DNA of 64,000 nt from an uncultured Gammaproteobacteria bacterium. GTDB taxonomy: Bacteria; Patescibacteriota; Microgenomatia; JAMCZE01. Location: the NCBI GenBank assembly GCA_964641255.1, contig CAZXMM010000001.1, positions 15,757 to 79,756 of the forward strand, written 5' to 3'. The notes beneath the pieces are model-generated. The model made no database searches and was not told the DNA's origin. It saw only the letters and a program-made list of their open reading frames with translations. Position 1 is the first letter of the stretch; each line of letters starts with the position of its first letter. Below, piece after piece: positions 17,605 through 34,116 of the stretch. A program made the translations under genes and the position numbers.

Positions 17605-17859
17605 ATGAAGAGGTATCTCACCGAAAGTGAGACCAACAAAGACCCGCTTCTTAGAACCCTTGCAAATGTGGAGCCGGTGGTGGGATGGATTGTCTACATC
17701 GGGATTGGTATTTATTTCATCCTCACTTGGAATTTCTATGTCACCGCCGTCACTTTCCTCATCTATACGTTTATCATTTCTCCTCTGCTTGTTGAATTTG
17801 TTTTAGACCGTTTGATGATGGCAATCTACTACTTAATTAGGGGGATGCCAAAAATATAA
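17605..17859 (+). CDS. hypothetical 2-TM membrane protein
   Basis: 84 aa. GGAG Shine-Dalgarno sits 8 nt upstream. The stop overlaps the next start (TAATG). Confidence 0.45.
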   Translation: MKRYLTESETNKDPLLRTLANVEPVVGWIVYIGIGIYFILTWNFYVTAVTFLIYTFIISPLLVEFVLDRLMMAIYYLIRGMPKI

Positions 17860-18479
17860 TGTTTGGCTTTTTTAAATCACCTAAAGACAGCTTTTATGAA
17901 CAATTGAAACGAGCGACGTATGAAGCCGCCATACTGGTCGACAAAAAGGATATAACAGGTAAAGAAAAAAACGTTTTGTACAGTATTATCGCAACCGGAG
18001 GATTATTCCCGACTATTTACTCACAGCCTCTCGATCTTGGTGATGGCAAATTATTAATAAGTGACGCAGATTTTGAATGTACGAGAGACAAAAAGCCCGG
18101 TGCTCTTTTACCAATTTTTTGTGTTTATTGCCTCTTTAACCTAATTGAAGTATCGAAAAACGATAAAGTCTTTGGGGCAAGATTTAACAAAATATTGCCG
18201 GGAGTGAAGACTGTCCTCTCCGAAGTAACGGATCTTGAACCAAAAGGTATTGACACTCTATTAGATCAACTCGAAGAGCGGGAAGGTGAGGATGGCATCG
18301 GGGCCGTTTATCCTCTCATGTACGCCCAGCCATTAGAGCTTATTTTTGGGTCTGACAGAGCAAAATCAATTCTCTTGGAATTATCTAAAAATCCTCTAGG
18401 TTCAACAGGCATTTCCTTGGCAATTCCATCAATGTTCATCGATTTCATCAAGGGTGTAAAGACGGAGCTTGCCGAATAG
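17859..18479 (+). CDS. hypothetical protein (206 aa)
   Basis: Translationally coupled to the upstream ORF. No family recognised. Confidence 0.45.
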   Translation: MFGFFKSPKDSFYEQLKRATYEAAILVDKKDITGKEKNVLYSIIATGGLFPTIYSQPLDLGDGKLLISDADFECTRDKKPGALLPIFCVYCLFNLIEVSKNDKVFGARFNKILPGVKTVLSEVTDLEPKGIDTLLDQLEEREGEDGIGAVYPLMYAQPLELIFGSDRAKSILLELSKNPLGSTGISLAIPSMFIDFIKGVKTELAE

Positions 18480-18574
18480 TTAGTCATGGTCATTCTCTGT
18501 CCAGCTTCGCAGCACTGCTTGTCCCAATAGCCATCCCCCCCCAACTCCCTAAATCTAGTTATAATAATCTCTCT

Positions 18575-19351
18575 ATGAAGTTGGGCGAACTAATCGAAAA
18601 AGTTACAATTCCATCAAAGCCGGTTAGAGTAATTATTCCTGTAAACGGTAAGCACAAGGCACTATTCTTTCTGGGAACAACAGCAGACGGGAGTCTTATG
18701 GTGGATCCTTCAATTGGATGCAGTTTCGATAATTGGCGGTATAGTTTTTGTACCGTTCCCAGGGGAAAAGTGCAAAATATAAGCGTCCCACTAGATCAAA
18801 AATCGATGATAGAATCCGGGAAAATTGGACCTAAAATTACTTATCATAAGAGTGGCTTTGTAAAGGTAGGTAAAACCAAGCTGTTGGAACCAGTTAGTAT
18901 TTGGGCAACCCCCCTGGATATTGCGTTTGGGCACCTGTTTACATATCAGGCTAAGGGTTTCCAGGGATTCAATTCTGTTACTACGCCCAATCCCAAATAC
19001 TCCGACATAATGCCAATAATACCAGCAGGATTAAAAACGCTAAAAATAGTTGCTCATGCGGGGAAATTGGAACACCTTATACCAACAATGGATCAAGTAA
19101 ATATATCGACACTTAGCAGACCAAATAGGATCTTTGAGAAGGACAATGGTAACTTGACAGAGATATCACTTTTCAAAATTAGCATAGCTTCGAGAGATAT
19201 CTGGATAAAATTAACGTATATTCCAAATTTTATCCTGACCCAGAACCCACAACCTAGCATAAATAGTTTGATTGGCTGGGATCAAGATAAAGCCGACGAT
19301 CTCAGAAAACCACTTAAGTTCGTAGCAATAGCAGCGGGGGGCGACTGGTAA
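18575..19351 (+). CDS. hypothetical protein (258 aa)
   Basis: TATAAT box upstream. Followed by conserved 3' motif copy 1. Confidence 0.45.
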   Translation: MKLGELIEKVTIPSKPVRVIIPVNGKHKALFFLGTTADGSLMVDPSIGCSFDNWRYSFCTVPRGKVQNISVPLDQKSMIESGKIGPKITYHKSGFVKVGKTKLLEPVSIWATPLDIAFGHLFTYQAKGFQGFNSVTTPNPKYSDIMPIIPAGLKTLKIVAHAGKLEHLIPTMDQVNISTLSRPNRIFEKDNGNLTEISLFKISIASRDIWIKLTYIPNFILTQNPQPSINSLIGWDQDKADDLRKPLKFVAIAAGGDW

Positions 19352-19388
19352 TTAATTCCCAAAACTAGATATTGGTATTTCGAGGAAC

Positions 19389-19430
19389 AAATTCCTGATT
19401 TCTTCCATTCCCCGCAACACAAAAATACTT
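19389..19430 (+). repeat. conserved 3'-cassette motif copy 1 (AAATTCCTGATTTCTTCCATTCCCCGCAACAC + A-run)
   Basis: One of four related copies, each 0-40 nt after a stop codon. Confidence 0.6.
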
Positions 19431-19438
19431 GGAGCATA

Positions 19439-19467
19439 AAGACGGTCCGTCTTCGTTTCTTCTTCTT
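19439..19467 (+). terminator. intrinsic terminator (GACGG-tc-CGTC plus T-rich tract)
   Basis: Hairpin followed by TTCGTTTCTTCTTCTT. A TGnTACAAT -10-like box follows at 19470-19478. Confidence 0.45.
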
Positions 19468-19484
19468 AATGCTACAATAGTAAC

Positions 19485-20141
19485 GTGCATACAAGAAAAG
19501 GGAATAGCTTAACTGTTATTCTGTTGGCAATTGCCATATCTTCAGTGGGAATAGTAAGCTACTTTTACTGGAAATCAGAAAATGTCCCCCCCGTCATTCA
19601 AATTCAAGAAAAAATAGTAAATCAAGACAACCCTTCGCAGAATAAATTATCAGAAAACTGGAAATTTCATTTTGACAACCGTCTTGCTTTCCAAGTTAAG
19701 ATTCCTCAAGATGCAGAAACTCAAGTTGTGCCCGCTGGCTTTGACAATGAGATGGGATTTGGTCCCGAGGGAATTTCCAGAATGGAATTCTCCAACAAAG
19801 ACTTTCTAATAAAGGTAGAACCCTCCACAAACAGGAGAAACGACCAAACTTTACAACAACTTGGTGAAACAAGAGAATTTAATGGCCTACCAGGTACTTC
19901 TCACCCAAGTCCTTGTTCAAAAGGTGCAGAGAAAGAAGAAATCCAGTTGCGCAGTGGAACTAAAGCATTTCTATGTGATAGCGTTCTTCCAAGCGGGCGA
20001 AAGTTTGGTATGGCCGCCACGATTTTAGGCAAAAAGTATTTTTACAACATAACAACAGGTAGTATTTATTCTCCAAACTTCACTGATAAAGAACAGGAAA
20101 TTTTTATGGAATTTCTTAACACCTTTCAGCCCACTGATTAG
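19485..20141 (+). CDS. hypothetical signal-anchored secreted protein (218 aa)
   Basis: GTG start at 19485. N-terminal TM helix LTVILLAIAISSVGIVSYFYW. Followed by motif copy 2. Confidence 0.45.
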   Translation: MHTRKGNSLTVILLAIAISSVGIVSYFYWKSENVPPVIQIQEKIVNQDNPSQNKLSENWKFHFDNRLAFQVKIPQDAETQVVPAGFDNEMGFGPEGISRMEFSNKDFLIKVEPSTNRRNDQTLQQLGETREFNGLPGTSHPSPCSKGAEKEEIQLRSGTKAFLCDSVLPSGRKFGMAATILGKKYFYNITTGSIYSPNFTDKEQEIFMEFLNTFQPTD

Positions 20142-20158
20142 TATGAGAGTTTTAGAAA

Positions 20159-20193
20159 CCAATTTCTGATTTCTTCCACTCCCCGCAACAAGG
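20159..20193 (+). repeat. conserved 3'-cassette motif copy 2 (CCAATTTCTGATTTCTTCCACTCCCCGCAACAAGG)
   Basis: Differs from copy 1 by a few substitutions. Confidence 0.6.
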
Positions 20194-20201
20194 AAATTCA
20201 A

Positions 20202-20229
20202 GCCGTATCAACGGCCTGTTTTATTTTTT
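20202..20229 (+). terminator. intrinsic terminator (GCCGT-atca-ACGGC plus TTTTATTTTTT)
   Basis: Hairpin and U-run seen directly. Confidence 0.55.
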
Positions 20230-20251
20230 CTGCCATGATACTATTATTTAC

Positions 20252-20497
20252 ATGAGTCTCTTTAAGAAAATCCTCCGTGTCATTACCATAGTGGTAGTAG
20301 CGTTTCTGCTAATAGGAGTTGCTTATTGGGGATTTAAAAGTGTTTTAGCAAGAGTTGCCCCAGAAAATAGCTTGGTTGATTGTCACTATTTTGATAATGA
20401 CTATGATGCGTGTAGTAAGCGACCAGACTGTTTACCAATCACAATTGGGGGAATTGGTAGCAGCCCAGCAGTTCATAGTTGTCAAACAAAGAAATAA
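20252..20497 (+). CDS. hypothetical small signal-anchored Cys-rich protein (81 aa)
   Basis: N-terminal TM helix. Four Cys in the C-terminal 35 aa (CHYFDNDYDACSKRPDC...HSC). Confidence 0.4.
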   Translation: MSLFKKILRVITIVVVAFLLIGVAYWGFKSVLARVAPENSLVDCHYFDNDYDACSKRPDCLPITIGGIGSSPAVHSCQTKK

Positions 20498-20537
20498 TTT
20501 CTGATTTCTTTCACTTTTCGCAACCAAAAAATCAGGA
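20494..20537 (+). repeat. conserved 3'-cassette motif copy 3 (AATAATTTCTGATTTCTTTCACTTTTCGCAACCAAAAAATCAGG)
   Basis: Overlaps the stop codon. CTGATTT...AAATCAG forms a 7-bp stem around the conserved loop. Confidence 0.6.
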
Positions 20538-20653
20538 GCGTGTAAACAGTCCGTTCGGTTATCCAAGATTATTGCTTCACATTTGTTTATTTCTAAACAA
20601 ACCTCGGACCAAACATTTGATACAATTGTGTTAGATAGTCTTGCGCTAAATAC

Positions 20654-21007
20654 ATGAGAAATAAAAAACTTGCAATCACTACCATAATAGTGGGAGGAAT
20701 AGAAGGTTTACTTGCGCTCTTCCTTTCCTCTTCTTTCCTACCAAAAATCATGCAAGTATACGAAGATTTTGGTGTGAATATCCCAATAACTACCAGCCTT
20801 ACCCCCTATATTTTTATATCCCCCGCCTTATTAAGCCTGATTGTGGGGACCTTAATTTTGACTTCCAAAAACAATAGCAAACGCTACAATTCCTGGGCAA
20901 TAATAATCCTGATAGCAACTCTAATTTTTATTTTTCTGGGTTTGCCCCTACTCTTCTCTGTAGGGTTCCTTTTTCCCATGTTCAACTTAGTAAACGTCAT
21001 AGAATAA
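20654..21007 (+). CDS. hypothetical 3-4-TM membrane protein (117 aa)
   Basis: TGaTACAAT box about 30 nt upstream. Followed by motif copy 4. Confidence 0.4.
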   Translation: MRNKKLAITTIIVGGIEGLLALFLSSSFLPKIMQVYEDFGVNIPITTSLTPYIFISPALLSLIVGTLILTSKNNSKRYNSWAIIILIATLIFIFLGLPLLFSVGFLFPMFNLVNVIE

Positions 21008-21045
21008 GTTCCCAAAGCATGAGAAATTCACTGCGAAAATCTACA

Positions 21046-21090
21046 ATAATTTCTGATTTTTTCTATTCCCGCAACCAAAAAAAAGGGGGG
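21046..21090 (+). repeat. conserved 3'-cassette motif copy 4 (AATAATTTCTGATTTTTTCTATTCCCGCAACCAAAAAAAAGGGGGG)
   Basis: Preceded by ATGAGAAAT at 21019-21028, a 10-mer also found at 20653-20662 around the 20654 start. May mark a truncated cassette. Confidence 0.55.
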
Positions 21091-22790: not shown

Positions 22791-22863
22791 GCCAGGGTAG
22801 CTCAGTGGTAGATGCGTGCGCTTCATAAGCGCAAGGTCGAGGGTCCGATCCCCTCCCCTGGTA
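22791..22863 (+). tRNA. tRNA-Met (anticodon CAU), somewhat degenerate
   Basis: Acceptor GCCAGGG/CCCTGGT with G1-U72 and A73. Anticodon stem TGCGC/GCGCA, loop TTCATAA. T-stem GAGGG/CCCTC. However, the D-stem has only 2 Watson-Crick pairs and the T-loop reads TCCGATC (C at position 55). Upstream promoter TTTGCTACAAT. Confidence 0.55.
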
Positions 22864-23205
22864 CTAAAAGAAAAGGTCTCGCCATTTTTGCCAGTTGGGC
22901 ACCATTGGTGGTGATACTTCCAAAGGAGGCAGCAAGAGCTCGTCAGGAACGATAATTATTTTTTCCCCTGCCCGAGCCAGCCCCAGTTCGTTTCTAGCTA
23001 CTAACTCCACGTAAGCCTCTGACCCTACCTGTTCCTTGCGTTTTATTAGTTCCTGCTGTTGTTTTTGGAGATTTGCCAACCGCTTCTGGCGCTCGATTAA
23101 TTTGTCCCCCGCGCTCCAAAAATCACCAAACGCCCGCACCGTAGTAAAGATCAGGTAAAACCCGATAACTATTACTACGATTCGTAAAATTCGGGACCGA
23201 TTCAT
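22864..23205 (-). CDS. FtsB/DivIC-like septum formation initiator
   Basis: 113 aa. N-terminal TM then a coiled coil (LANLQKQQQELIKRKEQ) and an ELVARNELGLARAGE motif, as in the FtsB/DivIC family. Confidence 0.55.
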   Translation of the reverse strand: MNRSRILRIVVIVIGFYLIFTTVRAFGDFWSAGDKLIERQKRLANLQKQQQELIKRKEQVGSEAYVELVARNELGLARAGEKIIIVPDELLLPPLEVSPPMVPNWQKWRDLFF

Positions 23206-23267: not shown

Positions 23268-24113
23268 ATGGACGATAGTCTTACTCAGTTTGTAGATTAC
23301 CTCAAATCCGCGAAAAAAGCTTCTGCCACCATTATCGCGTATAAAAAGGATATCGACCAGCTTCTCGACTTTGTCAAAAAGCAAGGGCGTAGTACGATTG
23401 GTTCCGTAACCACTGAGGATTTAAATAGCTTTCTAGGGGTACTTCAGGCACAAAATTATACCCCCAAGTCGGTATCTCGCAAGATCAATTCGATTAAGAC
23501 CTTTTACCGTTTTCTTAGCCAAAACAAGCTCATTACTAACAACGTCGCCGCAGCTATTAACCACCCGAAGTTTGACACCAAGGCTCCGCGGATTCTCTCG
23601 CGGCTCGAATACCGCGCCCTGCGTGATGCCTCCCGAGACGATAGTCGCATCGCGGCCATCATCGAGCTCCTACTGCAAACTGGAATGCGAATTGGGGAAT
23701 TAGCAGCCCTGCGAGTAGGCTCGATTGGTGATCACTTTTTAAAGATCCCGCCAGTTGAGGGTCACGCCGAACGTGACGTTCCTCTCAACAAATCCGCCAA
23801 ACTGGCCCTAGATCGCTACCTCGCCTTACGACCCAACGTCGACTCTAACGCTCTCTTTATCACTAAAACCGGCCGCCCATTGTTAATTAGAAACATTCGC
23901 ACTGCTATCGACCGCTACTTTAAACTAGCGGGCATTGCCGGAGCTAAGGTCAACGATCTTAGGCACACCTTTATTGCCCACCACCTGGCGGCAGGCACCT
24001 CCCCAGTGCTCATTAGTAAGTTGGTTGGACACAAAAGAATCAGTACTACTGAAAAATATCTTGAGTTTATCAAGGACCTCCCCACGGAAAAAATGAAGCT
24101 GGAAGAGCTTTAA
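23268..24113 (+). CDS. tyrosine site-specific recombinase, XerC/XerD family
   Basis: SAM-like N-terminal domain. Catalytic R (GMRIGEL), HxxR (LRHTF) and GHKRISTTEKY (His/Tyr). Confidence 0.75.
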   Translation: MDDSLTQFVDYLKSAKKASATIIAYKKDIDQLLDFVKKQGRSTIGSVTTEDLNSFLGVLQAQNYTPKSVSRKINSIKTFYRFLSQNKLITNNVAAAINHPKFDTKAPRILSRLEYRALRDASRDDSRIAAIIELLLQTGMRIGELAALRVGSIGDHFLKIPPVEGHAERDVPLNKSAKLALDRYLALRPNVDSNALFITKTGRPLLIRNIRTAIDRYFKLAGIAGAKVNDLRHTFIAHHLAAGTSPVLISKLVGHKRISTTEKYLEFIKDLPTEKMKLEEL

Positions 24114-25135
24114 CTAGATTGTCGCCGTTTTAGATTAAAAATATATCGTCCAACCACATACAATAGTACCCCAGCAACTACAAATCTCATAAGTTCTGAC
24201 GACCAAGCTTTATCCGCTTCCCGCCTCAACCAGTCCCCACCGGCTTTATAAGTAGCCTCTAAGCCCTTCAAGATCGCCGCTCCCCAGGGGTGCGACCGAA
24301 CACTATCAACTACCCCCGACTGAGATGCCTGACTCTCTCTAGCCTGGGGTGAAGGCGTAGAGCTTCTGGTCGCAGTCACCGTAGAAACCCGAGTAGAAGT
24401 CCTGGTCGGTCTATTAGGAACCTGGCTGGCTGCCTCGGCCCGAGCAGTGGCACCGATTCCCCTGGCTTCCTGCGTGGCTCTCCCACTTGCAGCGGTCTGA
24501 GTAGCTCTTATCCTAGCCACTTGTAGATCTATTACAGCACGGGCTAGCTCCCCCGAATCAGGACTAACCCCTTCTACCTTCCCAAAACAAAGCTTGTAGT
24601 CTCGTAGCGCTAAACTTCCAGCTACTTGTTCGGTAGCTCCCACTGAAGAGACTGTGTGGCTAGTCAGCAGCGAAGGACTAGGGTGTCTGCTATCACCCCA
24701 CCCTCGCGGCATCTCGAGATTGGTTATTTCCAACCACCCCTTAGGACCACCAGGAGGGAGGTTTGTCCTGTCAAGCCGTTGAGCATACTTTAAAACCACC
24801 CCAGGGTTAGTAATTACGAGGTTTCCCCGTCCATCAAGCTGGGTAGTTGACCCAACTAACATGAGGTGGCCACTAACAACTGTTCCATCAAGCCAGCGTG
24901 TGGCAGTACCCCGAGCAAAAACTCTGGGCACCCCTTGGACTAGCTCGGCTGATAGTGGTCGTTGACCGTCGCCCAATGTTCGTCCCGCTGGTCGCCCCCT
25001 GACGCACCGCTCTAGTGGAATAGTAGTGCCAGGGGCAGCTGACGAAGGGATTGGATTCGTTTCTTTTAAGGAAGGAGCCGGGGCACAACTAGCAAAAGCT
25101 AATAATATAGTAGTGCCAACTAACCCAGCCCTCAT
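24110..25135 (-). CDS. hypothetical lipoprotein with low-complexity Ser/Thr/Ala/Arg-rich region and anomalously high GC
   Basis: Lipobox LAFASC and C-terminal hydrophobic helix. About 60% GC counted in the 100-nt window 24361-24460, against about 45% elsewhere. Start taken at an internal Met. Confidence 0.4.
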   Translation of the reverse strand: MRAGLVGTTILLAFASCAPAPSLKETNPIPSSAAPGTTIPLERCVRGRPAGRTLGDGQRPLSAELVQGVPRVFARGTATRWLDGTVVSGHLMLVGSTTQLDGRGNLVITNPGVVLKYAQRLDRTNLPPGGPKGWLEITNLEMPRGWGDSRHPSPSLLTSHTVSSVGATEQVAGSLALRDYKLCFGKVEGVSPDSGELARAVIDLQVARIRATQTAASGRATQEARGIGATARAEAASQVPNRPTRTSTRVSTVTATRSSTPSPQARESQASQSGVVDSVRSHPWGAAILKGLEATYKAGGDWLRREADKAWSSELMRFVVAGVLLYVVGRYIFNLKRRQSS

Positions 25136-25279
25136 TACTTTTTTCAAGCGAAACTGTTCTGTATTTCTTCCCATTGGGGCCAGATTATACCGCCGGCACA
25201 ATATAAAGGCAAAATAAAACACGTGGCTAGCTGGGCAAATTTCGGTGACCAGGGAAATAAATTGCTATAATTTAGCATC

Positions 25280-25351
25280 AGGATCCGTCGTTCAACGGTT
25301 AGGACATGACTCTTATAAAGTCATTACAATGGTTCGACTCCATTCGGATCC
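25280..25351 (+). tRNA. tRNA-Ile (anticodon UAU)
   Basis: Clean cloverleaf: acceptor GGATCCG/CGGATCC plus A73, D-stem GTTC/GGAC, anticodon stem TGACT/AGTCA, loop CTTATAA (T34 A35 T36), T-arm AATGG-TTCGACT-CCATT. Extended -10 promoter TTGCTATAAT about 10 nt upstream. Confidence 0.7.
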
Positions 25352-25364
25352 ACTAGATTTGGGG

Positions 25365-27737
25365 CTAGAAAAGGTGGGACCGAGAGGCGATTTCTGCTTC
25401 CACCTCGCGGATGTCTCGAGCGTATTTGAGAGAAGACAACTCCTTAATCATCTCGGCCACCTTGGGGTTTCTCCCCTGATTGATTTTTTCAAAATCGTGA
25501 TTAATTTCTACACTAAAGACTGGTACCGGCTCGTTTTTAACGAGCGTTTTCATATAACCGTTGTAAGCTTCGACTTTCAGCAGGTCGGATTCGCTAAAGG
25601 TGGGAGAATATTCGTGGGCTAAGAACTGGGCGTCAGCTACCCCGACCCGAAAGGCAATCTTGGTGCCTACGTTACCAAAAATGGCATTTTTGACGTCCTC
25701 TTCGACCTGGGAAATGAACTGATTGGCTACTGTCAGAGCCAGTCCGTACTTGCGAGCCTCGGAGAGGATCACGGCGAAATCAGGAGTGGCAAAATTTTGA
25801 AACTCATCAACATACAGATAGAAAGGTATGCGTTCGGCTTCCGGGATGTCTTGCCGAGAGATAGCTGAGGCTAAAATTTTAGGTACCAACAGGTTGCCAA
25901 TAAAATTACTATTTTCTTCTCCAATTAACCCCTTGGCTAAATTGACAATAATGATCTTGCGCTCATCCATGGCCTTGCGGAAGTCAAAAGCGCTCTTTGA
26001 CTGACCAATAATATTGCGGATCATTTTATTGACCACGAAGCGGCTAAATTTGGAGACGATATAATCTAGGGTCTCAGACTTATGGAACTCAGTAGTAGAG
26101 GCAATTTGCTCGGTCCAAAACCGCTTTACCATCTGGTCACTCACTCTGGGGAGAAGTTCCTGCAGAAATGGCCCACCGGGATCTTGTAGTACGCGCATTA
26201 CTTCAATTAGAGTGCCCTCGGGCATTGCCTCCATGACCGTCAACATGGCATTGCGCACCGAATGTTCGAGACGGGGACCCACAATTCCGGTTTGGTGCGG
26301 GTCGTAGAGCTTATAAAGTAGACCGATAAAGCCCGAGACCACCATGTGACGCTGCATATCACTGTGAGCTTCCATGATATTCCAACCCATTGGTCGGTTT
26401 AAATTTGAGGGATCAAAATAGATTACATCCTCGGCCCGCTCGGGGGGAATCTGTTCCAGAATCTTTTCAAACGTATCGTGAGGATCAATGAAGCACACCC
26501 CTTTACCCTCCCGAATATCTTGCAGGATCATTTGGGACATAAGAAGCGACTTTCCAGTACCAGTGGCACCGATAATATACACGTGGCGCAACCGGTCGGG
26601 ATCAAGCAAATGGACTTCCCGCTCTTGACCCCGAAAAACAGACTTACCCACGAGTAACCCGCCATGATCAGGAACCTGTTGGGGAGCGGGCGCCCGTTTA
26701 GCATTGAGCCAAAAAATACCCGGGGTTTCAATTGATTTATTAGGAAAATGACAAATGGTGGCTAACTCCTCAGCCGATAAAATACTAGGGGTAGCAAATA
26801 ATGGTTGGTAGCGGTAAATAAAGTCGGTCATAAAGTTGTGGGCAATACGGATTTTGTCGCCCGAAAAACCGTTTTGATCCGAAGAAAATTGGGAGAATGA
26901 ACCCTTGAGATTATCTAGTATAGATTTGGCTTGAGCTTTATCGGCGGCACTGACTACAATCCGAATCGAGGTAGAAAAACCCACTTTACTCACTTTATTC
27001 TCAATCGCCTCTAATGTCTTGGCGTCCACGTTAAACTTGGCCTTTTCCGGATCGGCCTCGTTTTTCTTGGTTTTACTAATATACTTTCTTCCCTGACTGC
27101 GCCACTCATTGGGGGCCGGAGCGACAATAAACTGTACCACCGCTCCCTCTCCTTCACTCAGCTTGGCAAGACTGGAAGTGATCTGGGAAAGCGGATCCAC
27201 CGCTAAATCACGAAAGTTCTTAATTGGCATATAATTGGCGGCTTTAAGCTTCAAACTAGCGAAGGCGACCTCTCCTTTTTCCGAAAAAATTGAATGATCT
27301 TCGACTTCCAAAATAGCGGCGCCGTTAAAAGTGGAGTGAATTTGCTTTTCGATCAGATCGCGTTGTTTCTGGGGGACGGACACATAAAACCTGATGTCTC
27401 CGGGCCGACCCACTATCTCAAAAGAGATATGATCCTGAATTCGTAAAAAATCAAAATCAAACCAGCTCGACTTACCACGATAAATCGAATAAAGTGAGGA
27501 AAAAAATTGCTCCATGGCGTCGATCTTGACTTCATTGTCTCTGGGCACCGCTACCTGAAGCAGGACATAATCTAGGGCGTGTTCCTCCCGATTGCGCCAC
27601 TTATAAAACTGGAGGAATAGGTAACCTAACAAGCCCAAGGACACAACCACCAAAGTAATCGTCAGCAGTCCAATAGCTACAATGGCTGTCAGTTCTGGAA
27701 GTTGTAATAAAAAGACGTCAAGGGCAGCGAGATCCAT
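25365..27737 (-). CDS. VirB4/TraC/ConE-like (AAA_10/DUF87-type) membrane-associated P-loop ATPase
   Basis: 790 aa. N-terminal TM helices, Walker A IIGATGTGKS at about residue 395 followed by CFIDPHD, and Walker B YLYVDEFQNF. The architecture matches VirB4-type conjugation/T4SS ATPases. A HerA/FtsK-like ATPase is the alternative. Confidence 0.5.
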   Translation of the reverse strand: MDLAALDVFLLQLPELTAIVAIGLLTITLVVVSLGLLGYLFLQFYKWRNREEHALDYVLLQVAVPRDNEVKIDAMEQFFSSLYSIYRGKSSWFDFDFLRIQDHISFEIVGRPGDIRFYVSVPQKQRDLIEKQIHSTFNGAAILEVEDHSIFSEKGEVAFASLKLKAANYMPIKNFRDLAVDPLSQITSSLAKLSEGEGAVVQFIVAPAPNEWRSQGRKYISKTKKNEADPEKAKFNVDAKTLEAIENKVSKVGFSTSIRIVVSAADKAQAKSILDNLKGSFSQFSSDQNGFSGDKIRIAHNFMTDFIYRYQPLFATPSILSAEELATICHFPNKSIETPGIFWLNAKRAPAPQQVPDHGGLLVGKSVFRGQEREVHLLDPDRLRHVYIIGATGTGKSLLMSQMILQDIREGKGVCFIDPHDTFEKILEQIPPERAEDVIYFDPSNLNRPMGWNIMEAHSDMQRHMVVSGFIGLLYKLYDPHQTGIVGPRLEHSVRNAMLTVMEAMPEGTLIEVMRVLQDPGGPFLQELLPRVSDQMVKRFWTEQIASTTEFHKSETLDYIVSKFSRFVVNKMIRNIIGQSKSAFDFRKAMDERKIIIVNLAKGLIGEENSNFIGNLLVPKILASAISRQDIPEAERIPFYLYVDEFQNFATPDFAVILSEARKYGLALTVANQFISQVEEDVKNAIFGNVGTKIAFRVGVADAQFLAHEYSPTFSESDLLKVEAYNGYMKTLVKNEPVPVFSVEINHDFEKINQGRNPKVAEMIKELSSLKYARDIREVEAEIASRSHLF

Positions 27738-27749
27738 GGAACAATAATA

Positions 27750-28340
27750 TCACTTCTCCACCCCTTTGGACCGCACAATTCTACCGCTGACTTTTTTTAG
27801 GTGGTAGTGCGCTTTGAGAAGTTGATAAATAAACCACTCGGCCAGCCAGCGAAACCCACTGCTGGTGGGTTTTTTAAGCCCGATAGTAACTTGGTCGTCA
27901 GACAGCGAAGTACCACCTACTGAAAACCCGGTGGCGGCTTGCATTGGAGTGTGAACGGTGACCGTGGGACTGATACCCATTTCCCTAGCCACATCTTCTG
28001 GAAGCGTAATCTCACCCGACTCTACTTTCTCAATCCCCCCCAGCTCCGCCACTTCTTTTTCCAGTTCGATCTCCCGAGCGTACTGTTCCCAGTACTCATC
28101 TCCTTCGGCTTTAGCCACCTTATCTGCTTCAGCATAGTTAGGAGTGCTTTTCCCAATAGCTTGATCGGAAAAGTGTGGTACACCTACTTCTTTACTCGGG
28201 CTAGACACGGGACTAGGAGTTGTCGCGGCATTTGCTGGTGCTATGGGGGGCGGACCCGCCGCAGAATCAACGGCCGGATCAACTGGGGTTGGGGAAGAAG
28301 TGGGATTATTATCACTGGGATTTTGAGCAGGATCAGCCAT
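27750..28340 (-). CDS. hypothetical Pro/Ala-rich protein, operonic with the VirB4-like ATPase
   Basis: 196 aa. N-terminal low-complexity PTSSPTPVDPAVDSAAGPPPIAPANAATTPSP. C-terminal hydrophobic segment. Confidence 0.4.
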   Translation of the reverse strand: MADPAQNPSDNNPTSSPTPVDPAVDSAAGPPPIAPANAATTPSPVSSPSKEVGVPHFSDQAIGKSTPNYAEADKVAKAEGDEYWEQYAREIELEKEVAELGGIEKVESGEITLPEDVAREMGISPTVTVHTPMQAATGFSVGGTSLSDDQVTIGLKKPTSSGFRWLAEWFIYQLLKAHYHLKKVSGRIVRSKGVEK

Positions 28341-28370: not shown

Positions 28371-29387
28371 CTAATCCCAGTTTAAATCCCCAGCAGTTTT
28401 ATACTCGGTAACTCTGGTTTCGAAGAAATTCTTTTCTTTGCGCAAATCCACGATTTCACTAATCCACGGGAAAGGATTGTCACTACCATAAACTTTCTCC
28501 AGATTAATGCGCTCTAAACGCCGATCAGCAATGTACTGCATATATTCCCTAATTACCTCAGCATTAAGCCCCAAAATTCCCCGTGGTAGTGAATCTTTAG
28601 CGTACAAGCATTCCAGCTCCACACCTTTTTTGATATTGTCGGTAATAATTTTTTTGAATTCCGGCGTCCAAATGGCGGGATTTTCGGCTACGATTTGATT
28701 GATAAGATCTGAGCCAAAAGCCAAATGAACCGATTCGTCGCGAAGAATATATTGAAACTGCTGGCCTACCCCCACCATCCTATTTTGTCTCATAAAAGAC
28801 AACATCATCGCAAAGCCGGCATAAAAGAAGATTCCCTCCATAATGACATAGTAGCCCACTAAGTCGTGGACAAATCGCTGGATATTTTCCACTCCCTGGG
28901 TAGTGAAATTGGGGTCAAAAATCGATTTGGTCATGTTAACCACAAACTCGTCTTTTTCCCTAATCGAGGGGATAGTCATATACATGTTATAGACCTGGTC
29001 GGGATCAAGACCTAAGGAGTCGCAGGAGTAGATAAAAGTTTCGGTGTGAATGGCTTCCTCATAGCCCTGACGCAGTAGATATTGGCGACACTCGGGATTA
29101 GTTATATGGCGATAGATGGCAAGAACAATATTGTTGGCGGTCAAACTCTCAGCTGTTGAAAAAAAACCCAGATTCCACAGTACCATTCGCCTTTCATCAT
29201 CGGTTAGTGCACCGGAGCCCTGTCTCTTCCACAGTTCAATATCATCCTGCATGGGAATTTCTTCCGGCACCCAGTTATTGGCGACACCTTTTTTGTAGTG
29301 CTCTCTGGCCCAAGGATACTTAATTGGCAGTATCTTGTTGGGGTCAGTTTCGGAGTTATTTAAAATTTGTTTAATCGGACTGGACAT
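28371..29387 (-). CDS. nrdB: ribonucleotide reductase class I small subunit (R2)
   Basis: Ferritin-like di-iron ligand motifs EEAIHTETF and RDESVHLAFG. 338 aa. Confidence 0.85.
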   Translation of the reverse strand: MSSPIKQILNNSETDPNKILPIKYPWAREHYKKGVANNWVPEEIPMQDDIELWKRQGSGALTDDERRMVLWNLGFFSTAESLTANNIVLAIYRHITNPECRQYLLRQGYEEAIHTETFIYSCDSLGLDPDQVYNMYMTIPSIREKDEFVVNMTKSIFDPNFTTQGVENIQRFVHDLVGYYVIMEGIFFYAGFAMMLSFMRQNRMVGVGQQFQYILRDESVHLAFGSDLINQIVAENPAIWTPEFKKIITDNIKKGVELECLYAKDSLPRGILGLNAEVIREYMQYIADRRLERINLEKVYGSDNPFPWISEIVDLRKEKNFFETRVTEYKTAGDLNWD

Positions 29388-29392
29388 AGTTA

Positions 29393-29998
29393 TTACTTGC
29401 CTTTATCGAAAAATGTTGCAACTTGGGTTCCTCTTGAGAAACTCTCCCCAAGTATCACTTTTATATCACAACTATAGTTATATTTGGAAGACACCAATCT
29501 TCCCCATAAAGTAAATTCTTCTTCGGTCCATTCAAACTTATGTCCTAGTACTCTAAGTTCCTTTGCTGTCCTCACTCCGCCTACTATCCCCTTTAGGGAT
29601 CGCGGAGTGGTAATGACAATCACCCGAGGATGTAATCGATTAAAAAGCTCTGTTTCTAGGCTCTTCAGGTCTCGTTTGCTAAAATGTTCTATTACTTCGA
29701 TTAGAACGACGGCTTCAATACCAGAGTAATTCTTCAAATCTATAAGTCTGCCCAGAAAAAGAGAGACATTTTTATTTTTCCCAAGATATTTACCTGCCAA
29801 TTTTAATGACTTCTTATCATGGTCAATCCCAATTAGTTTTTTAAATATTTTTTCATTTGATAGTAGCTCTAAAAATTGGCCGTCACCGCAGCCGAAGTCC
29901 AAAACGCTGGTAACTCTTTTTTTCTTTAGAATTTCAAGGACAGTGTTATGCCTCTTGCTATGCGACTTATTTTGCTTATCACTAAAACCAGATCGCAT
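29393..29998 (-). CDS. class I SAM-dependent methyltransferase (possible Hen1-like metal site EVIEH...H)
   Basis: Motif I LDFGCGDGQF. The IEVIEHF...RLHP arrangement resembles the Hen1 metal-binding pattern. This is a tentative call. Confidence 0.65.
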   Translation of the reverse strand: MRSGFSDKQNKSHSKRHNTVLEILKKKRVTSVLDFGCGDGQFLELLSNEKIFKKLIGIDHDKKSLKLAGKYLGKNKNVSLFLGRLIDLKNYSGIEAVVLIEVIEHFSKRDLKSLETELFNRLHPRVIVITTPRSLKGIVGGVRTAKELRVLGHKFEWTEEEFTLWGRLVSSKYNYSCDIKVILGESFSRGTQVATFFDKGK

Positions 29999-30016
29999 AG
30001 TTGTAAACTCACAATC

Positions 30017-30301
30017 CTACTTAGTCAACTTTTGGAACCTGGTAGTTTTTCTGCCCTGTTGGTCCTCGACTGGGGAAAACCATTCCGATAGGGGCCGGTC
30101 CCAGACAAAATCTGCTGGATAATTATCGTAATCTGGATGGTAAAGCACCCCAGGTTCTTCACTTTCCTCTCTCATTGCAATACCCCTTATGGTGTAGAGT
30201 TGGTCCGGTTGTTTGTAGTGAAACCACCGACTTCCCGGAGGGACCAGGGCTACTGCTTCCTGCCATTTTTTGATAATCTCTTCAGCGCTGGTATGAGCCA
30301 T
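30017..30301 (-). CDS. hypothetical protein (94 aa)
   Basis: ORF lying between nrdA and the MTase. No family recognised. Confidence 0.4.
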   Translation of the reverse strand: MAHTSAEEIIKKWQEAVALVPPGSRWFHYKQPDQLYTIRGIAMREESEEPGVLYHPDYDNYPADFVWDRPLSEWFSPVEDQQGRKTTRFQKLTK

Positions 30302-30322
30302 ACAAATCTAATTTTATGATAA

Positions 30323-33300
30323 TTATTGGCAGGCTTCACACTCGGGATCACTAATAAGACAGGCTTTCCCCAGTTTAATTTCCTCCCCCACTTGAATTTT
30401 TACCGTACCGTCAGCCTTTTGTTCCAGTACTGAAACTGTCTTTTCAGAAACAGCTACCGACTCTAAAGGCGCTACACTGACGGTAGCAAAGTGCCCCTGC
30501 CCAAAATCACTGGTATAGTTTTCCTTGCTAACCGTCTTGACAGTATCATTACTAACCATTATCTCTTCGGCGCTATGACCATTACCCTGTTTTTTGAGAT
30601 CCACGGTATTTTTCTCGATACTGGAGGCGGCTAGGGTTCTAAGGTAATACGTCGTTTTTAGTCCCATCTGCCAGGCGTACATGTAAATATCTGACAGTTC
30701 TTTTCCGGAAGAACTGGCAGAAAAAATATTAAGCGATTGGCTCTGATCCATCCACCTACCCCGGTAAGCAGCCTGCTTAATTGACCACCGCGGATCGATC
30801 TCAAAGGCTTCTTTATACTTTTCCTTAAGCGACTGGGGAATCCCCACAATCTTCTGGATACTACCGTCGTGGGCCTTAATTTCCTCAACTAGTTCTGCGG
30901 ACCAGAGACCTAAAGACTTCAGGTCATCTTTAAGAAAATGGTTGTCAACGGTAAACTCCCCGCTCATGTTGGATTTTACATAAAGATTTTTATAAATTGG
31001 CTCGATTCCGGGGAAACACCCGGAAATGTTAGAAATCGTCGCCGTAGGGGCAATCGCCATGGTATTTGAGTTACGCATGCCGTTAACCCTGACCGCCTCT
31101 CTCACTACCGACCAATCCAAGCGTTCATCACGGGGCACATCAATTTTCATTCCCCGCTCTTCCTCAAGAAGAGCTAGAGTGTCTTGGGGGAAGATTCCCC
31201 TGTCCCACTTGGATCCTTTATAGCTTTCGTAGGTTCCACGTTCGGCAGCTAGATTAGAGGAGCCCAGAATGGCATAGTACGCCACCGCCTCCATACTCTC
31301 GTCAGCAAACTTCACCGCAGCCTCTGAAGCGAAAGGGATATTGAGCATAAAGAGTGCGTCCTGAAAGCCCATGATCCCTAGACCTACTGGACGGTGCTTA
31401 AAATTAGAATGCCGCGCCTCCTCGGTCGGGTAGAAATTAATGTCAATGACGTTATCCAGCATCCGCATGGCAATTAGGACAGTTTCCTTAAGCATTTCCA
31501 AATCTAGCTTGCCGTTAACAATGTGTTTGGTTAAGTTCACCGACCCCAAATTACACACCGCCGTCTCACTCGGAGAGGTGTTTAGAGTAATTTCGGTACA
31601 TAAATTAGAACTATGAATTACCCCAACGTGGTCTTGGGGAGAGCGAATATTGCAAGGGTCCTTCCAAGTAATCCAAGGGTGGCCTGTCTCAAACAGACGA
31701 GTAATCATTTTTTTCCACAGGTCCCTCGCTTTAATGGTCTTGAAAAGCTTTATTTCCCCCTGTTTGGCCTTGTCCTCATAGGCAGTATAAGCCTGTTCAA
31801 ACTTTTGGCCATAAATTTCGTGAAGGTCGGGTGTTTCATCGGGAGAAAAGAGAGTCCAGTCTTGATCGGCAGCGACTCTTTTCATAAATAGATCAGGAAT
31901 CCAGTTAGAGGTATTCATGTCATGAGTCCGGCGCCGCTCATCTCCAGTGTTGCGCCGCAGATCGAGGAAATCCTCGATATCCAGATGCCAAGTTTCTAAG
32001 TAAGCGCAGGTGGCTCCGTGACGCTTACCACTGCGGTTAATAGCTACTGTTGTGTCATTGGCGATCCTAAGGAACGGGATTACTCCTTGGCTGGCGACAC
32101 CGGTTTTCTTAATTAGCGCCCCGGTCGCCCGCAAACTACTCCAGTCGTTTCCCAGCCCTCCCGACCACTTAGACAGCTGGGCGTTGTCACTTAGGCACTT
32201 AAAAATATGTACCAGGTCGTCACTAATGGTAGTCAAATAACAAGAAGACAACTGGGGATAGGTAGTGGCAGCCTGAAACAGCGTAGGCGTCGAGGACACG
32301 AACTTTAGGGTAGACAGGTTTTTATAAAACTTAATGGCCCATTTTTCTCTATCTTTCTCTTTAAGAGAGAGTCCGATCGCTACCCGCATCCAAAACGCCT
32401 GGGGCGTCTCCAAGCGACGCTCGCCATTAGCTAAAAAATACCGGTCGTAAAGCGTTTGTAAACCTCGGTATGTAAACAGTGAGTCTTTTTCCATATCCAG
32501 ATGCCTTGAGAGCAAATCAAGATCAAATTCCAGGACTTCGGGAGTGACTTTGCCGATTTCTACTGCGAATTTCAAATTATCAACAAAAGCCTGTTGATAA
32601 ACCTTTACTAGTTCTTCCTGACGGTACTTCTTCCCGATGACCTCTTTATAAAGAGTGGTTAGAAACAACCGCACCGTGACCCGATCGTAGATAGAATTTT
32701 TCTCAATAAAAGATTTAGTCGTTAAATAGCCCAGCCGCGCAATCTCTTGTGAAGAGATACCATCATAAATTGAGGCCACCGCTAACCTAACTAAACTGGT
32801 TAAATCAACAGTGTCTTCAAAACCCTCTACAGCACTTCTCATAAAAGCTTCGAGTTTTTTTTCTTGAAAAGCTTCTTTAGAACCGTCTCGTTTGACTACC
32901 AAAAACGGAGCGGTTTCTACCTTGGCGGAAATACCAGCGGAAGCGGCCAGATCACGCATTTCCGCCCGCTGTTGCCGATAAAGAATGTAGCGCTTAGCGG
33001 CTTCAAATTCCCCCGCTGCCTGAAGTACCATTTCCACCGTGTCTTGAACATTCTCCACGGTCGGGGCCGGATATTTGGCTGCCACAATATTCACTACTTG
33101 AGTAGCTAGTAAAGCCACGGTCACCTCGGGTACTCGACCAAAAGAGTCAAAGCATTTTTGTATGGCGTTTTCAATTCTCGACCGATCAAAAGGCACCGTT
33201 TGACCAGTTCTTTTAATAATCGTCTTAGGCATCACAATACCCGCCTCGGTGATGTATTCCTGGACTTGTAAAATTGGGGTAGCCGCAGCAATTACTTCTT

Positions 33301-33457
33301 CGGTGTGAGAATGACCGTTGGTATTTTTAGCGTCAGCAGTAGCTGTCATAGTGGCTTGAGTATTATTAAATAACTTGGCACCTTTATAAGGTCTACCTGG
33401 TCGAATAATTCTCGGTATCGGTTCGGTTATTGGTGTGGTCGGGTTTGCCTGGGCCAT
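30323..33457 (-). CDS. nrdA: ribonucleotide reductase class I large subunit with ATP-cone and N/C-terminal extensions
   Basis: ATP cone (KRTGQTVPFDRSRIENAI), catalytic NLCTEI, C-terminal CEAC pair. 1044 aa from the ATG at 33457; the track ORF starts at a TTG at 33466. Confidence 0.85.
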   Translation of the reverse strand: MAQANPTTPITEPIPRIIRPGRPYKGAKLFNNTQATMTATADAKNTNGHSHTEEVIAAATPILQVQEYITEAGIVMPKTIIKRTGQTVPFDRSRIENAIQKCFDSFGRVPEVTVALLATQVVNIVAAKYPAPTVENVQDTVEMVLQAAGEFEAAKRYILYRQQRAEMRDLAASAGISAKVETAPFLVVKRDGSKEAFQEKKLEAFMRSAVEGFEDTVDLTSLVRLAVASIYDGISSQEIARLGYLTTKSFIEKNSIYDRVTVRLFLTTLYKEVIGKKYRQEELVKVYQQAFVDNLKFAVEIGKVTPEVLEFDLDLLSRHLDMEKDSLFTYRGLQTLYDRYFLANGERRLETPQAFWMRVAIGLSLKEKDREKWAIKFYKNLSTLKFVSSTPTLFQAATTYPQLSSCYLTTISDDLVHIFKCLSDNAQLSKWSGGLGNDWSSLRATGALIKKTGVASQGVIPFLRIANDTTVAINRSGKRHGATCAYLETWHLDIEDFLDLRRNTGDERRRTHDMNTSNWIPDLFMKRVAADQDWTLFSPDETPDLHEIYGQKFEQAYTAYEDKAKQGEIKLFKTIKARDLWKKMITRLFETGHPWITWKDPCNIRSPQDHVGVIHSSNLCTEITLNTSPSETAVCNLGSVNLTKHIVNGKLDLEMLKETVLIAMRMLDNVIDINFYPTEEARHSNFKHRPVGLGIMGFQDALFMLNIPFASEAAVKFADESMEAVAYYAILGSSNLAAERGTYESYKGSKWDRGIFPQDTLALLEEERGMKIDVPRDERLDWSVVREAVRVNGMRNSNTMAIAPTATISNISGCFPGIEPIYKNLYVKSNMSGEFTVDNHFLKDDLKSLGLWSAELVEEIKAHDGSIQKIVGIPQSLKEKYKEAFEIDPRWSIKQAAYRGRWMDQSQSLNIFSASSSGKELSDIYMYAWQMGLKTTYYLRTLAASSIEKNTVDLKKQGNGHSAEEIMVSNDTVKTVSKENYTSDFGQGHFATVSVAPLESVAVSEKTVSVLEQKADGTVKIQVGEEIKLGKACLISDPECEACQ

Positions 33458-33458
33458 A

Positions 33459-33899
33459 TTAAGCAAGCTTATCGATTAATTTTTCAAAATCTTCTAGACT
33501 TTCAAAATCTAAATAAACACTGGCAAATCTGATATATGCGACTTTGTCAATTTTCTTTAGCCTCTTAAGTACTGCGTTACCAATTGTTTTACTACTAATC
33601 TCGGTGGAATTTTTGTTTCTTAACTCTTGTTCGATTTCCTCCACAATAGTGTCGATAAGCTCAGTGGCAATAGCCCGTTTTTGTGTAGCCTGGACAATGC
33701 CTCGCCTAAGTTTCTCCCGGTCAAATTTCTCCCGTCGATTATCCTTTTTAATCACCGCCAGTTCGACACTTTCTACCCGCTCATAAGTTGTAAATCTCTT
33801 CTCACAGCTACGACATTCTCGGCGCCGCCTGGTAGAACCCTCGCCATCCCGCGTTTCCATTACGTCAGTTTCTTCGCTACCGCAATAAGGACACTTCAC
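33459..33899 (-). CDS. nrdR: transcriptional repressor NrdR
   Basis: GTG start. Zinc ribbon CPYCG...CRSC plus ATP cone. Confidence 0.85.
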   Translation of the reverse strand: MKCPYCGSEETDVMETRDGEGSTRRRRECRSCEKRFTTYERVESVELAVIKKDNRREKFDREKLRRGIVQATQKRAIATELIDTIVEEIEQELRNKNSTEISSKTIGNAVLKRLKKIDKVAYIRFASVYLDFESLEDFEKLIDKLA

Positions 33900-33957
33900 A
33901 AAGTTAAAAGTTTATAAAGTTAAAAGTTATAAAGCACTTTATGACTTTATAAACCCG
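33900..33957. promoter_or_regulatory. AT-rich tandem and inverted repeat cluster directly upstream of nrdR (candidate operator)
   Basis: AAAGTTAAAAGTTTAT x about 2.2 tandem copies, plus an imperfect palindrome (about 20-bp arms) centred on ATAAAG-CA-CTTTAT. Confidence 0.4.
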
Positions 33958-34116
33958 CTAACTTTAGAAACTTGAGTTAACACTACATCTAGTGACGCCT
34001 TTCACGATAAGCCACTAAATAAGGGGTGTCAACTAACAATAACTATGGCAAAGGGGGTCAATTCTTTAATTCGAAGCTAGGCTAATTTTTGGGCCAATAA
34101 TTTTATGACTATAACC

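Follow-up and report, generated by a model that had tools for sequence, protein, structure and literature searches.

What function is served by an ATPase and a small proline-rich protein that are encoded directly behind nrdB, a ribonucleotide reductase (RNR) gene, in an uncultured patescibacterium? The two genes lie in a stretch of 64,000 nucleotides (the window) of contig CAZXMM010000001.1 (assembly GCA_964641255.1), which is filed as an uncultured Gammaproteobacteria bacterium and assigned by GTDB to the Microgenomatia. The ultra-small Patescibacteria, or the candidate phyla radiation (CPR), account for much of the diversity of bacteria, are unable to synthesize nucleotides and depend on a machine resembling a type IV secretion system (T4SS). 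The ATPase is best described as a member of the catalogued Pfam family DUF8128, in which a motor like that of the type IV coupling proteins (T4CPs) is combined with a VirB4-like N-terminal domain (N-domain) and accompanied by a conserved small partner protein. The original prediction for this locus had proposed a VirB4/TraC-like ATPase of AAA_10 type, and had considered that the pair could be a remnant of a conjugative element, a part of a CPR-type apparatus for host attachment or DNA uptake, or a HerA-like ATPase of a defence system. The genes and their parts are the following (aa, amino acids).

25365..27737, minus strand: ATPase gene, 790 aa, stop included; DUF8128-type, T4CP-like (open reading frame list, Pfam)
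27603..27731, minus strand: putative membrane anchor, aa ~3–45; sole hydrophobic segment, Kyte-Doolittle peak 2.73
26670..27605, minus strand: DUF8128 N-terminal domain, aa 45–356; predicted fold like that of the VirB4 N-domain
25368..26669, minus strand: RecA-like motor domain with all-alpha insertion, aa 357–790
26547..26570, minus strand: Walker A, GATGTGKS, aa 390–397; G390, G393, G395, K396 and S397 invariant in 43 sequences
25800..25820, minus strand: Walker B region, YLYVDEF, aa 640–646; Y642 through A650 invariant in 43 sequences
27750..28340, minus strand: partner gene, 196 aa; N-terminus Pro-rich and disordered, middle acidic, C-terminus basic and amphipathic
27753..27890, minus strand: conserved C-terminal segment of the partner, aa 151–196, ...SSGFRWLAEWFIYQLLKAHYHLKKVSGRIVR...; maximum hydrophobic moment 0.58
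28371..29387, minus strand: nrdB; Ribonuc_red_sm, E 1.5e-85 (Pfam)

Both the ATPase and the partner are genuine genes and not chance open reading frames (ORFs), because a protein identical to the ATPase is already on record (P0001, encoded on a contig of 950,062 bp) and the search scored more than 5,800 ATPase homologues. The layout given in the original prediction, a 790-aa ATPase and a 196-aa Pro-rich protein behind nrdB on the same strand, was exact to the coordinate, with gaps of 30 bp between nrdB and the partner and 12 bp between the partner and the ATPase. A motif and hydrophobicity scan (Kyte-Doolittle) located all three motifs named there, Walker A, DPHD (aa 418–421) and DEF, the last within the Walker B region. 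The proposed association with the membrane was likewise supported by a single strongly hydrophobic segment at the N-terminus, which the AlphaFold2 (AF2) model shows as one long helix (aa 3–47). The KWRNRE sequence following this anchor suggests, by the positive-inside rule, that the rest of the ATPase is cytoplasmic. As had also been predicted, a Pfam scan of the ~55 ORFs in the window returned no further T4SS component.

Domains were scored with Pfam and NCBIfam, defence families with PADLOC and phage families with PHROG. Among the Pfam models, TraG-D_C (33.0 bits against a cut-off of 22), TrwB_AAD_bind (30.8 against 20.5), T4SS-DNA_transf (25.3 against 20.1) and DUF87 (30.6 bits) were above cut-off on the ATPase. 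Below cut-off were AAA_10 (18.2 against 27.5), P-loop_TraG (12.6 against 25.8) and FtsK_SpoIIIE (16.6 against 24, spanning aa 367–405 only), and neither CagE_TrbE_VirB nor Ftsk_gamma gave a match. Of the models that the original prediction had named for a check, T4SS-DNA_transf and DUF87 were thus found, while AAA_10 and CagE_TrbE_VirB were not; its label 'AAA_10-type' is not supported, also in view of the VirB4 model TIGR00929 (29 bits against 643). In NCBIfam the top ranks went to TraD/VirD4-type coupling proteins, with VirB4_CagE lower and all of them far below their curated cut-offs. The T4CP equivalog and subfamily models scored 46 against 366 (SXT_TraD), 38.6 against 648 (conj_TOL_TraD), 38 against 250 (CD1115 VirD4-like) and 17 against 521 (TraD_Ftype), and the HerA equivalogs 18.5 against 970 (helicase_HerA) and 16.3 against 850 (HerA_antiphage_2).

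The DUF8128 model (PF26449) covers the N-domain of the identical protein P0001, of all 120 top homologues and of the related loci L001–L004, as read from precomputed annotations (PF26449.1). The best 120 of the more than 5,800 homologues are 745–805 aa long, share 61–80% identity with the ATPase and come from Patescibacteria/Microgenomates; the homologues go by source names such as 'type IV secretion system DNA-binding domain-containing', 'TraM recognition domain-containing' and 'conjugative DNA transfer family protein'. With the N-domain as query, phmmer recovered 2,247 clusters at 50% identity (E ≤ 1e-3) among 1.84 billion representatives. The family is present in at least 596 GTDB species genomes (596 of 600 listed candidates were confirmed by pattern scan), spread over Microgenomates lineages, Dojkabacteria, WWE3, Berkelbacteria and records titled Saccharibacteria. 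In a 43-sequence alignment, Walker A, Walker B and ~190 further columns are invariant, and the mean column identity is 72%.

A profile of the CPR motor domain was compared with reference proteins of F, pCF10 and pCW3 and with FtsK of Escherichia coli. It scored best against TcpB (E 2.4e-6), TcpA (1.6e-4) and TraD (2.8e-4), followed by FtsK (2e-3), PcfC (2.4e-3), TraC (0.03), and TcpF and PrgJ (both 0.33), and the CPR N-domain profile had no match in TraC, PrgJ or TcpF. Searching the family profile against PDB sequences gave weak P-loop matches only (DotL, TrwB and RecA), so that a comparison of folds was required.

The AF2 model of the whole chain (pLDDT 82) consists of the long N-terminal helix, an alpha/beta domain (aa ~55–330), a RecA-like domain and a helical insertion (aa 460–577) that falls between Walker A and Walker B. 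Structure prediction, a check that the original prediction had named, spoke for both sides of the superfamily: the best whole-chain match in the PDB by Foldseek was TrwK/VirB4 of R388 (E 2.9e-16), and the C-terminal half also superposes on TrwB (TMt 0.55–0.64), followed by HerA (E 1e-11) and Cag-beta. A separate model of aa 45–356 (pLDDT 80.6, pTM 0.82) had TrwK/VirB4 of R388 as all of its top 14 matches (E 1.4e-8 to 1.9e-5, TMq 0.45–0.51). The next matches were unrelated (E > 6e-4) and no other P-loop ATPase appeared, and the similarity must therefore concern the N-domain that is specific to VirB4. By predicted fold and sequence models together, the ATPase joins a VirB4-N-domain-like fold to a motor on the T4CP/FtsK side, a fusion that may bear on how the VirB4 and VirD4 ATPases diverged. 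The original description as 'VirB4/TraC-like' accordingly survives in part, namely for membership of the T4SS superfamily (VirB4/VirD4 clade), the two-domain build and the fold of the N-domain, but not for the VirB4 sequence models, which stayed below cut-off.

A true VirB4 is encoded separately in related genomes. When PrgJ was used as a tblastn query on 84 related loci, L040 and L038, both from Roizmanbacteria-type genomes, proved to hold a VirB4 at a distance of 7–9 kb from the DUF8128 ATPase (E 6e-39); only 2 of 81 related loci have a VirB4 within 10 kb of the DUF8128 ATPase. In L040 (454–2866) a 217-aa TrsD-like ORF is followed by a 588-aa PrgJ-like VirB4, and L038 holds the same pair at ~11500–13200. 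Members of this PrgJ-like family carry AAA_10, P-loop_TraG and DUF87 domains, many of them also CagE_TrbE_VirB, and some are filed under the name 'type IV secretory pathway VirB4 component'. The top 120 matches of the Roizmanbacteria VirB4 were all Roizmanbacteria relatives of at least 83% identity, an extreme conservation. Since L040 and L038 hold a PrgJ-like VirB4 of their own, the DUF8128 ATPase and VirB4 are, judged by their sequences, distinct paralogous families that co-occur.

A published survey found VirB4 in 2,417 of 3,035 Patescibacteria genomes, as a clade nested in monoderm MPF-FATA, and 5,713 VirD4-type T4CP homologues in 2,918 Patescibacteria genomes, with 148 near virB4 and most without relaxases; its authors consider that these T4CPs were possibly exapted (Quinonero-Coronel et al., 2025; PMC12102498). 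The DUF8128 family is likely the source of those orphan counts, because it is near-universal and occurs as two paralogues per locus in some lineages. Such orphan T4CP homologues in CPR genomes will not surprise specialists. Two DUF8128-ATPase paralogues lie close together in L080–L084, a Berkelbacteria record and records titled Saccharibacteria (for example L084 9741–12113 and 13972–17193), and in most of these loci the second paralogue has a disordered, charged C-terminal extension of 200–300 aa.

Homologues also occur on phages and plasmids. PHROG 5156, a family of unknown function, matches the ATPase (E 5.8e-88), and tblastn recovered full-length phage homologues, N-domain included, at 20–23% identity in Bacillus phage G (gp156, E 1e-36) and SPO1 (gp27.4), with further ones in SP8, CampHawk, 0305phi8-36 and Microcystis phages. 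Foldseek against BFVD confirmed the phage homologues with E 1.8e-43 (gp156) and 3.3e-39 and with TMq up to 0.69 (phage JL). Plasmid homologues come from 418 records, among them 'DUF87' proteins of ~880–913 aa from Shouchella and Bacillus, proteins of haloarchaea annotated with a 'TraM recognition domain' and of Sulfolobus with a 'T4SS DNA-binding domain', and many Streptomyces records. The Bacillus, haloarchaeal and Sulfolobus plasmid proteins are homologous over their full length (~25% identity) and match the CPR N-domain profile at E 1e-32 to 3e-14; with the CPR family profile, the phage and plasmid relatives score between E 1e-60 and 5e-35.

Next to the homologue on a plasmid of Shouchella clausii comes a Replic_Relax gene and then a set of genes like TcpC/D/E; the place of TcpF in pCW3 is taken here by a gene for a large ATP-binding protein. 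By this order the homologue occupies the coupling-protein slot. In SPO1, gp27.4 is followed by the Replic_Relax protein gp27.3 (L085 3743–7280), and in phage G the VirB4-like gp155 precedes gp156 (L086 2243–6385). The relatives, which include plasmid 'DUF87' and archaeal 'TraG-like' proteins, thus share homology with the ATPase along the whole chain, the DUF8128-like N-domain included, but they are ~20–27% identical, are borne by mobile elements and, in the phage and plasmid proteins inspected, have no N-terminal transmembrane (TM) helix. Their neighbour is a Replic_Relax (PD-(D/E)XK-like) gene that follows, whereas in CPR a Pro-rich partner precedes. As they are themselves uncharacterized, these relatives lend sequence support to the classification but not to any mechanism.

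The partner protein gave no match in Pfam, NCBIfam, PADLOC or PHROG. We found 104 homologues, conserved across the C-terminal ~125 aa. The proline richness noted in the original prediction is seen at the N-terminus, where Pro makes up 25% of the first 55 positions, and Pro, Ser, Ala and Thr together 64%. The net charge is −4 in this N-terminal part, −13 in the acidic middle and +8 in the basic C-terminal segment, which contains an amphipathic helix (...GFRWLAEWFIYQLLKAHYHLKK...). A RWL.EW motif is common to the partners of L001, L004 and other related loci. A same-strand ORF of at least 90 aa abuts the ATPase upstream in 63 of the 75 related loci with enough upstream sequence and is profile-detectable in 31, and a Trp-containing basic amphipathic C-terminal motif was present in 40 of 65 such upstream ORFs versus 9.4% of control ORFs (p = 6e-25). 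In L001 the stop of the partner and the start of the ATPase overlap. From its sequence, the partner may act through a membrane- or motor-docking helix that carries a disordered, fast-evolving acidic arm. In the close relative L004 (GCA_023380635) the partner gene (9340–9978, minus strand) is inverted relative to the ATPase gene (10001–12364, plus strand), with 22 bp between the two start codons; either the segment was inverted locally or the arrangement is an artefact of assembly.

The tRNA genes and the recombinase that the original prediction had noticed close by were all found, as was a gene for DivIC.

25281..25353, plus strand: tRNA-Ile(UAU), convergent, at the 3' border of the unit (ARAGORN)
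23268..24113, plus strand: Xer-type tyrosine recombinase (Pfam)
22864..23205, minus strand: DivIC (Pfam)
22791–22864: tRNA-Met (ARAGORN)

Across Microgenomates families the ATPase retains 55–80% identity, matching FtsH. Its identity to L004 is 74% (FtsH 71, GAPDH 72, Xer 74), and to L025 and L021 it is 59% (FtsH 56–58). Over tens of kilobases the window keeps the gene order of other Microgenomates genomes, which runs PfkB, FBP aldolase, 2-hydroxyacid dehydrogenase, PGK, GAPDH, DUF5667, RNR, partner and ATPase, and after the ATPase Xer, DivIC, TrpRS, a tRNA-binding protein, FtsH, a 5'-3' exonuclease and a glycosyltransferase. No genes are found near the ATPase more often than those for Xer (37 of 81 loci) and DivIC (32 of 81); in the 46 close loci they lie within 4 kb of it in 25 and 22 cases, respectively, Xer on the opposite strand and at a median of 793 bp downstream. 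In distant family members the linkage to Xer falls to 2 of 9. No tRNA-derived or att-like direct repeats flank the ATPase and partner genes, and no marked shift in composition was seen there. Because the conservation is at the level of FtsH, the housekeeping block is collinear, Xer is conserved beside DivIC and att-like repeats are absent, the pair is by all sequence indications a vertically inherited core module of Patescibacteria and not the leftover of a mobile element, and the conjugative remnant of the original prediction has to be given up.

The ATPase can be set beside several known systems. Like the T4CPs (VirD4/TrwB/TraD), it is anchored at the N-terminus and has an all-alpha domain inserted in a RecA-like motor that carries Walker A and B; further points of agreement are the Pfam models above cut-off, the superposition on TrwB and a distant homologue in the T4CP slot of a Firmicutes plasmid. 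It differs from them in the ~310-aa VirB4-like domain between anchor and motor, in having one hydrophobic segment where two TM helices are usual, and in being encoded by a core gene of the chromosome that has a small partner of its own, with no relaxase or T4SS in the 64-kb window. VirB4, TrwK and TraC have the same two-domain architecture and N-domain fold and provide the best structural match to the whole chain, yet the ATPase fails the CagE_TrbE_VirB, AAA_10 and TIGR00929 thresholds, and related CPR genomes hold a true VirB4. The ATPase also has a TM anchor of its own, whereas the membrane association of VirB4 relies on VirB3. FtsK/SpoIIIE and TcpA-type proteins belong to the same superfamily, are membrane-anchored and show weak profile similarity, and the ATPase adjoins Xer and DivIC; it lacks, however, the gamma (KOPS/XerD-binding) domain and the 4-TM N-terminal domain of FtsK/SpoIIIE and is below the FtsK_SpoIIIE cut-off. 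HerA and mad8 of MADS resemble it through DUF87, the Foldseek match to HerA and a PADLOC match to mad8 (71 bits), but the ATPase has no HAS-barrel and the window no NurA, Sir2 or DUF4297 partner.

Taken together, these features argue for a hexameric, membrane-tethered and ATP-driven coupling motor that serves a FATA-type T4SS encoded elsewhere, with the N-domain used for docking and the partner as adaptor or regulator; we give this reading a probability of roughly 0.55. One N-terminal helix would hold the ATPase in the membrane and, by analogy with T4CPs, FtsK and VirB4, six subunits would form a ring at its cytoplasmic face. ATP would be spent on feeding a polymer substrate, either an unfolded protein or a nucleic acid, into a membrane channel or out of it. 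This channel is probably a monoderm MPF-FATA-like T4SS, which most Patescibacteria encode at another place in the genome, and the VirB4-like N-domain is a candidate for the surface that docks there. The partner might sit at the membrane or on the motor via its basic amphipathic C-terminal helix and present its acidic, disordered and fast-evolving N-terminal part as adaptor or regulator. Being near-universal, conserved like FtsH and encoded apart from T4SS genes, the family is an obvious candidate for the substrate-handling motor. Of the three functions offered by the original prediction, a CPR-specific apparatus fits best.

Several observations weigh against such a coupling motor. Given the unmet curated NCBIfam cut-offs, the ATPase is, in terms of sequence models, not an orthologue of any characterized T4CP, and a VirB4-like N-domain with a single TM segment is, as modelled, a non-canonical build for this class. 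Pfam scans of the 64-kb window revealed no T4SS gene, relaxase or pilin. The T4CP homologue of Southlakia epibionticum, which may or may not belong to the DUF8128 family, was reported to be non-essential while the T4SS genes were essential. Finally, our literature search on DUF8128 turned up no papers and no published assignment of the exact family. The outcome is the re-classification of a catalogued family and not evidence of a new mechanism, although the architecture, the partner, the conservation, the position at nrd and the phage and plasmid relatives all provide handles on what the CPR T4SS moves.

The position of the pair behind nrdB raises the question of whether the two genes are part of the nrd operon.

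28371..33899, minus strand: nrdR, nrdA, DUF1653 protein, S-adenosylmethionine (SAM)-dependent methyltransferase and nrdB (Pfam and translations)
34032–34004, minus strand: promoter-like site upstream of nrdR, 10 of 12 consensus positions
33980–33995, minus strand: NrdR-box-like palindrome, the sole match in the window to ACACWATATATWGTGT at ≤3 mismatches; 3 mismatches

From nrdR to the ATPase the gaps are, in order, −8, 21, 18, 5, 30 and 12 bp. No terminator-like site was found on the minus strand in the gaps from nrdR to the stop of the ATPase, the minus-strand matches being confined to the inside of nrdA and of the methyltransferase gene. The promoter-like site and the NrdR-box-like palindrome are consensus matches only, and ~0.64 matches of the latter kind are expected per window by chance. 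From this arrangement it is plausible that the partner and the ATPase are the distal genes of an NrdR-type nrd operon and are co-transcribed with it. Among 43 close relatives, 19 have an RNR gene upstream on the strand of the ATPase, as against none of 11 more distant members, and the linked RNRs differ in class, being of class I in the window and of class II, with a PduO-type adenosyltransferase, in other genomes. Because the linkage falls in distant members, for RNR as for Xer, both adjacencies may simply be inherited gene order in Microgenomates. The DUF1653 protein and the SAM-dependent methyltransferase (29393–30301, minus strand) are inserted between nrdA and nrdB, and a tandem 16-nt repeat (33895–33926) overlaps the start of nrdR. 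The idea that one more conserved gene belongs between the partner and the RNR module was rejected, the genes there being heterogeneous among relatives.

If the operon is taken at face value, the pair could be a motor for the import of host RNA or DNA, an exapted T4CP-like ATPase co-expressed with NrdR-controlled RNR so that import is matched to the demand for deoxynucleoside triphosphates (dNTPs). The distal place in a packed operon, the promoter-like site, the sole NrdR-box-like palindrome and the lack of intergenic terminators would all agree with this, as would the RNR upstream in close relatives whatever its class. T4CP and FtsK relatives are well known to translocate nucleic acid, and a 2026 preprint describes a Patescibacterium with T4SS-like tubes that takes up RNA from its host and for which no importer is known. 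On the other hand, the RNR linkage is lost in distant members of the family and its presence in a collinear region may reflect inherited order, and a single palindrome with three mismatches is close to what chance would supply. We also know of no T4CP that has been shown to act in the import direction. We regard such a motor as unlikely, if still the least unlikely of the alternatives, and the full version, in which the DUF8128 ATPase and its partner pull host nucleic acid in through the T4SS-like apparatus under co-regulation with dNTP synthesis in Microgenomates, as a shade less credible. If true, it would supply the missing importer for a lifestyle of 'feeding on host RNA', and no T4CP-type motor before it would have been shown to serve uptake as a housekeeping task. 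Equally hard to credit as that full version is an FtsK-like translocase for chromosome segregation and dimer resolution, working with Xer and DivIC at the division site. Membrane anchoring within the FtsK/HerA superfamily, conservation at housekeeping level, the best profile scores against the FtsK-like TcpB and TcpA and the frequent Xer and DivIC neighbours point this way, as does, more weakly, tblastn with the E. coli FtsK motor and TcpA, which found no FtsK in 1.46 Mb of CPR sequence, where only ~1–2 were expected. Yet FtsK_SpoIIIE is below cut-off and the gamma domain missing, Xer is convergent or opposite and not co-transcribed, and its linkage falls to 2 of 9 in distant members. The N-domain moreover resembles VirB4, relaxase-like genes accompany the homologues on plasmids and in phages, and at least one Saccharibacterium (TM7x) is reported to express FtsK.

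That the ATPase is instead the T4SS assembly ATPase itself, a divergent VirB4/TraC, we consider very improbable. Its length and two-domain build are VirB4-like, TrwK/VirB4 is the best whole-chain match and the N-domain matches VirB4 only; these similarities have to be held against the sub-threshold AAA_10, P-loop_TraG and TIGR00929 scores, the missing CagE_TrbE_VirB match, the poor E-values (0.03–0.33) of the CPR profile against TraC, TcpF and PrgJ, and the separate, highly conserved VirB4 of 585 aa, with AAA_10, CagE_TrbE_VirB and P-loop_TraG domains, that related genomes carry next to a TrsD-like gene. Least credible of all is a degenerate conjugative or integrative element, or an anti-phage defence component of HerA or MADS type. 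It would account for the tRNA genes and the tyrosine recombinase within 3 kb, the serine recombinase 10 kb away, the PADLOC match to mad8 with weak HerA matches, and PHROG 5156 with its phage and plasmid homologues. The catalytic motifs are all intact, however, the identity across Microgenomates families equals that of FtsH, the position among housekeeping genes is conserved with Xer–DivIC as part of the synteny, and there are neither att-like direct repeats nor a marked shift in composition. As for defence, PADLOC covers only the generic ATPase core (for HerA ~50 residues around Walker A), and no MADS, HerA–NurA or Sir2 partner is present, so that the HerA-like function of the original prediction is not supported either. 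Conservation, synteny, absent att repeats and these core-only matches largely refute both forms. The probability that remains belongs to functions outside the coupling motor and the alternatives discussed here.

Some further observations concern the surroundings. The tRNA-Ile(UAU) gene lies 11 bp beyond the stop of the ATPase. Bacteria mostly decode AUA with a lysidine-modified CAU tRNA, and a UAU tRNA-Ile is uncommon. Between this gene and Xer lies a 370-aa ORF (24110–25222, minus strand; GC 0.49) with a lipobox-like N-terminus (LAFASC), a low-complexity region of Ser, Thr, Ala and Arg and a C-terminal hydrophobic helix; it had no match in Pfam, NCBIfam, PADLOC or PHROGs, nor by tblastn in 84 related loci. 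ARAGORN also called a tRNA of undetermined type at 3291–3359 (plus strand), with a 2-base 'anticodon' (ca) and overlapping the start of an ORF at 3325–4368, which is probably spurious or a degenerate tRNA gene. Among L005–L084, many contigs of clear patescibacterial origin are titled 'uncultured Gammaproteobacteria', 'Pseudomonadales', 'Bathyarchaeia archaeon' or 'Limisphaerales', and the taxon labels of such metagenome-assembled genome records are unreliable.

Between TrpRS and the DivIC side, a ~10-kb block (12750–21050) breaks the synteny, the same interval being ~1.5 kb in L004. It encodes a large serine recombinase (13953–15794; Resolvase and Recombinase domains) and several ORFs that matched neither Pfam nor PHROG; the block may represent an integrated element, or else an island specific to this lineage. 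An intergenic repeat, AATTTCTGATTTCTTCCACTCCCCGCAAC, occurs four times in the block, at 19390, 20161, 20496 and 21048.

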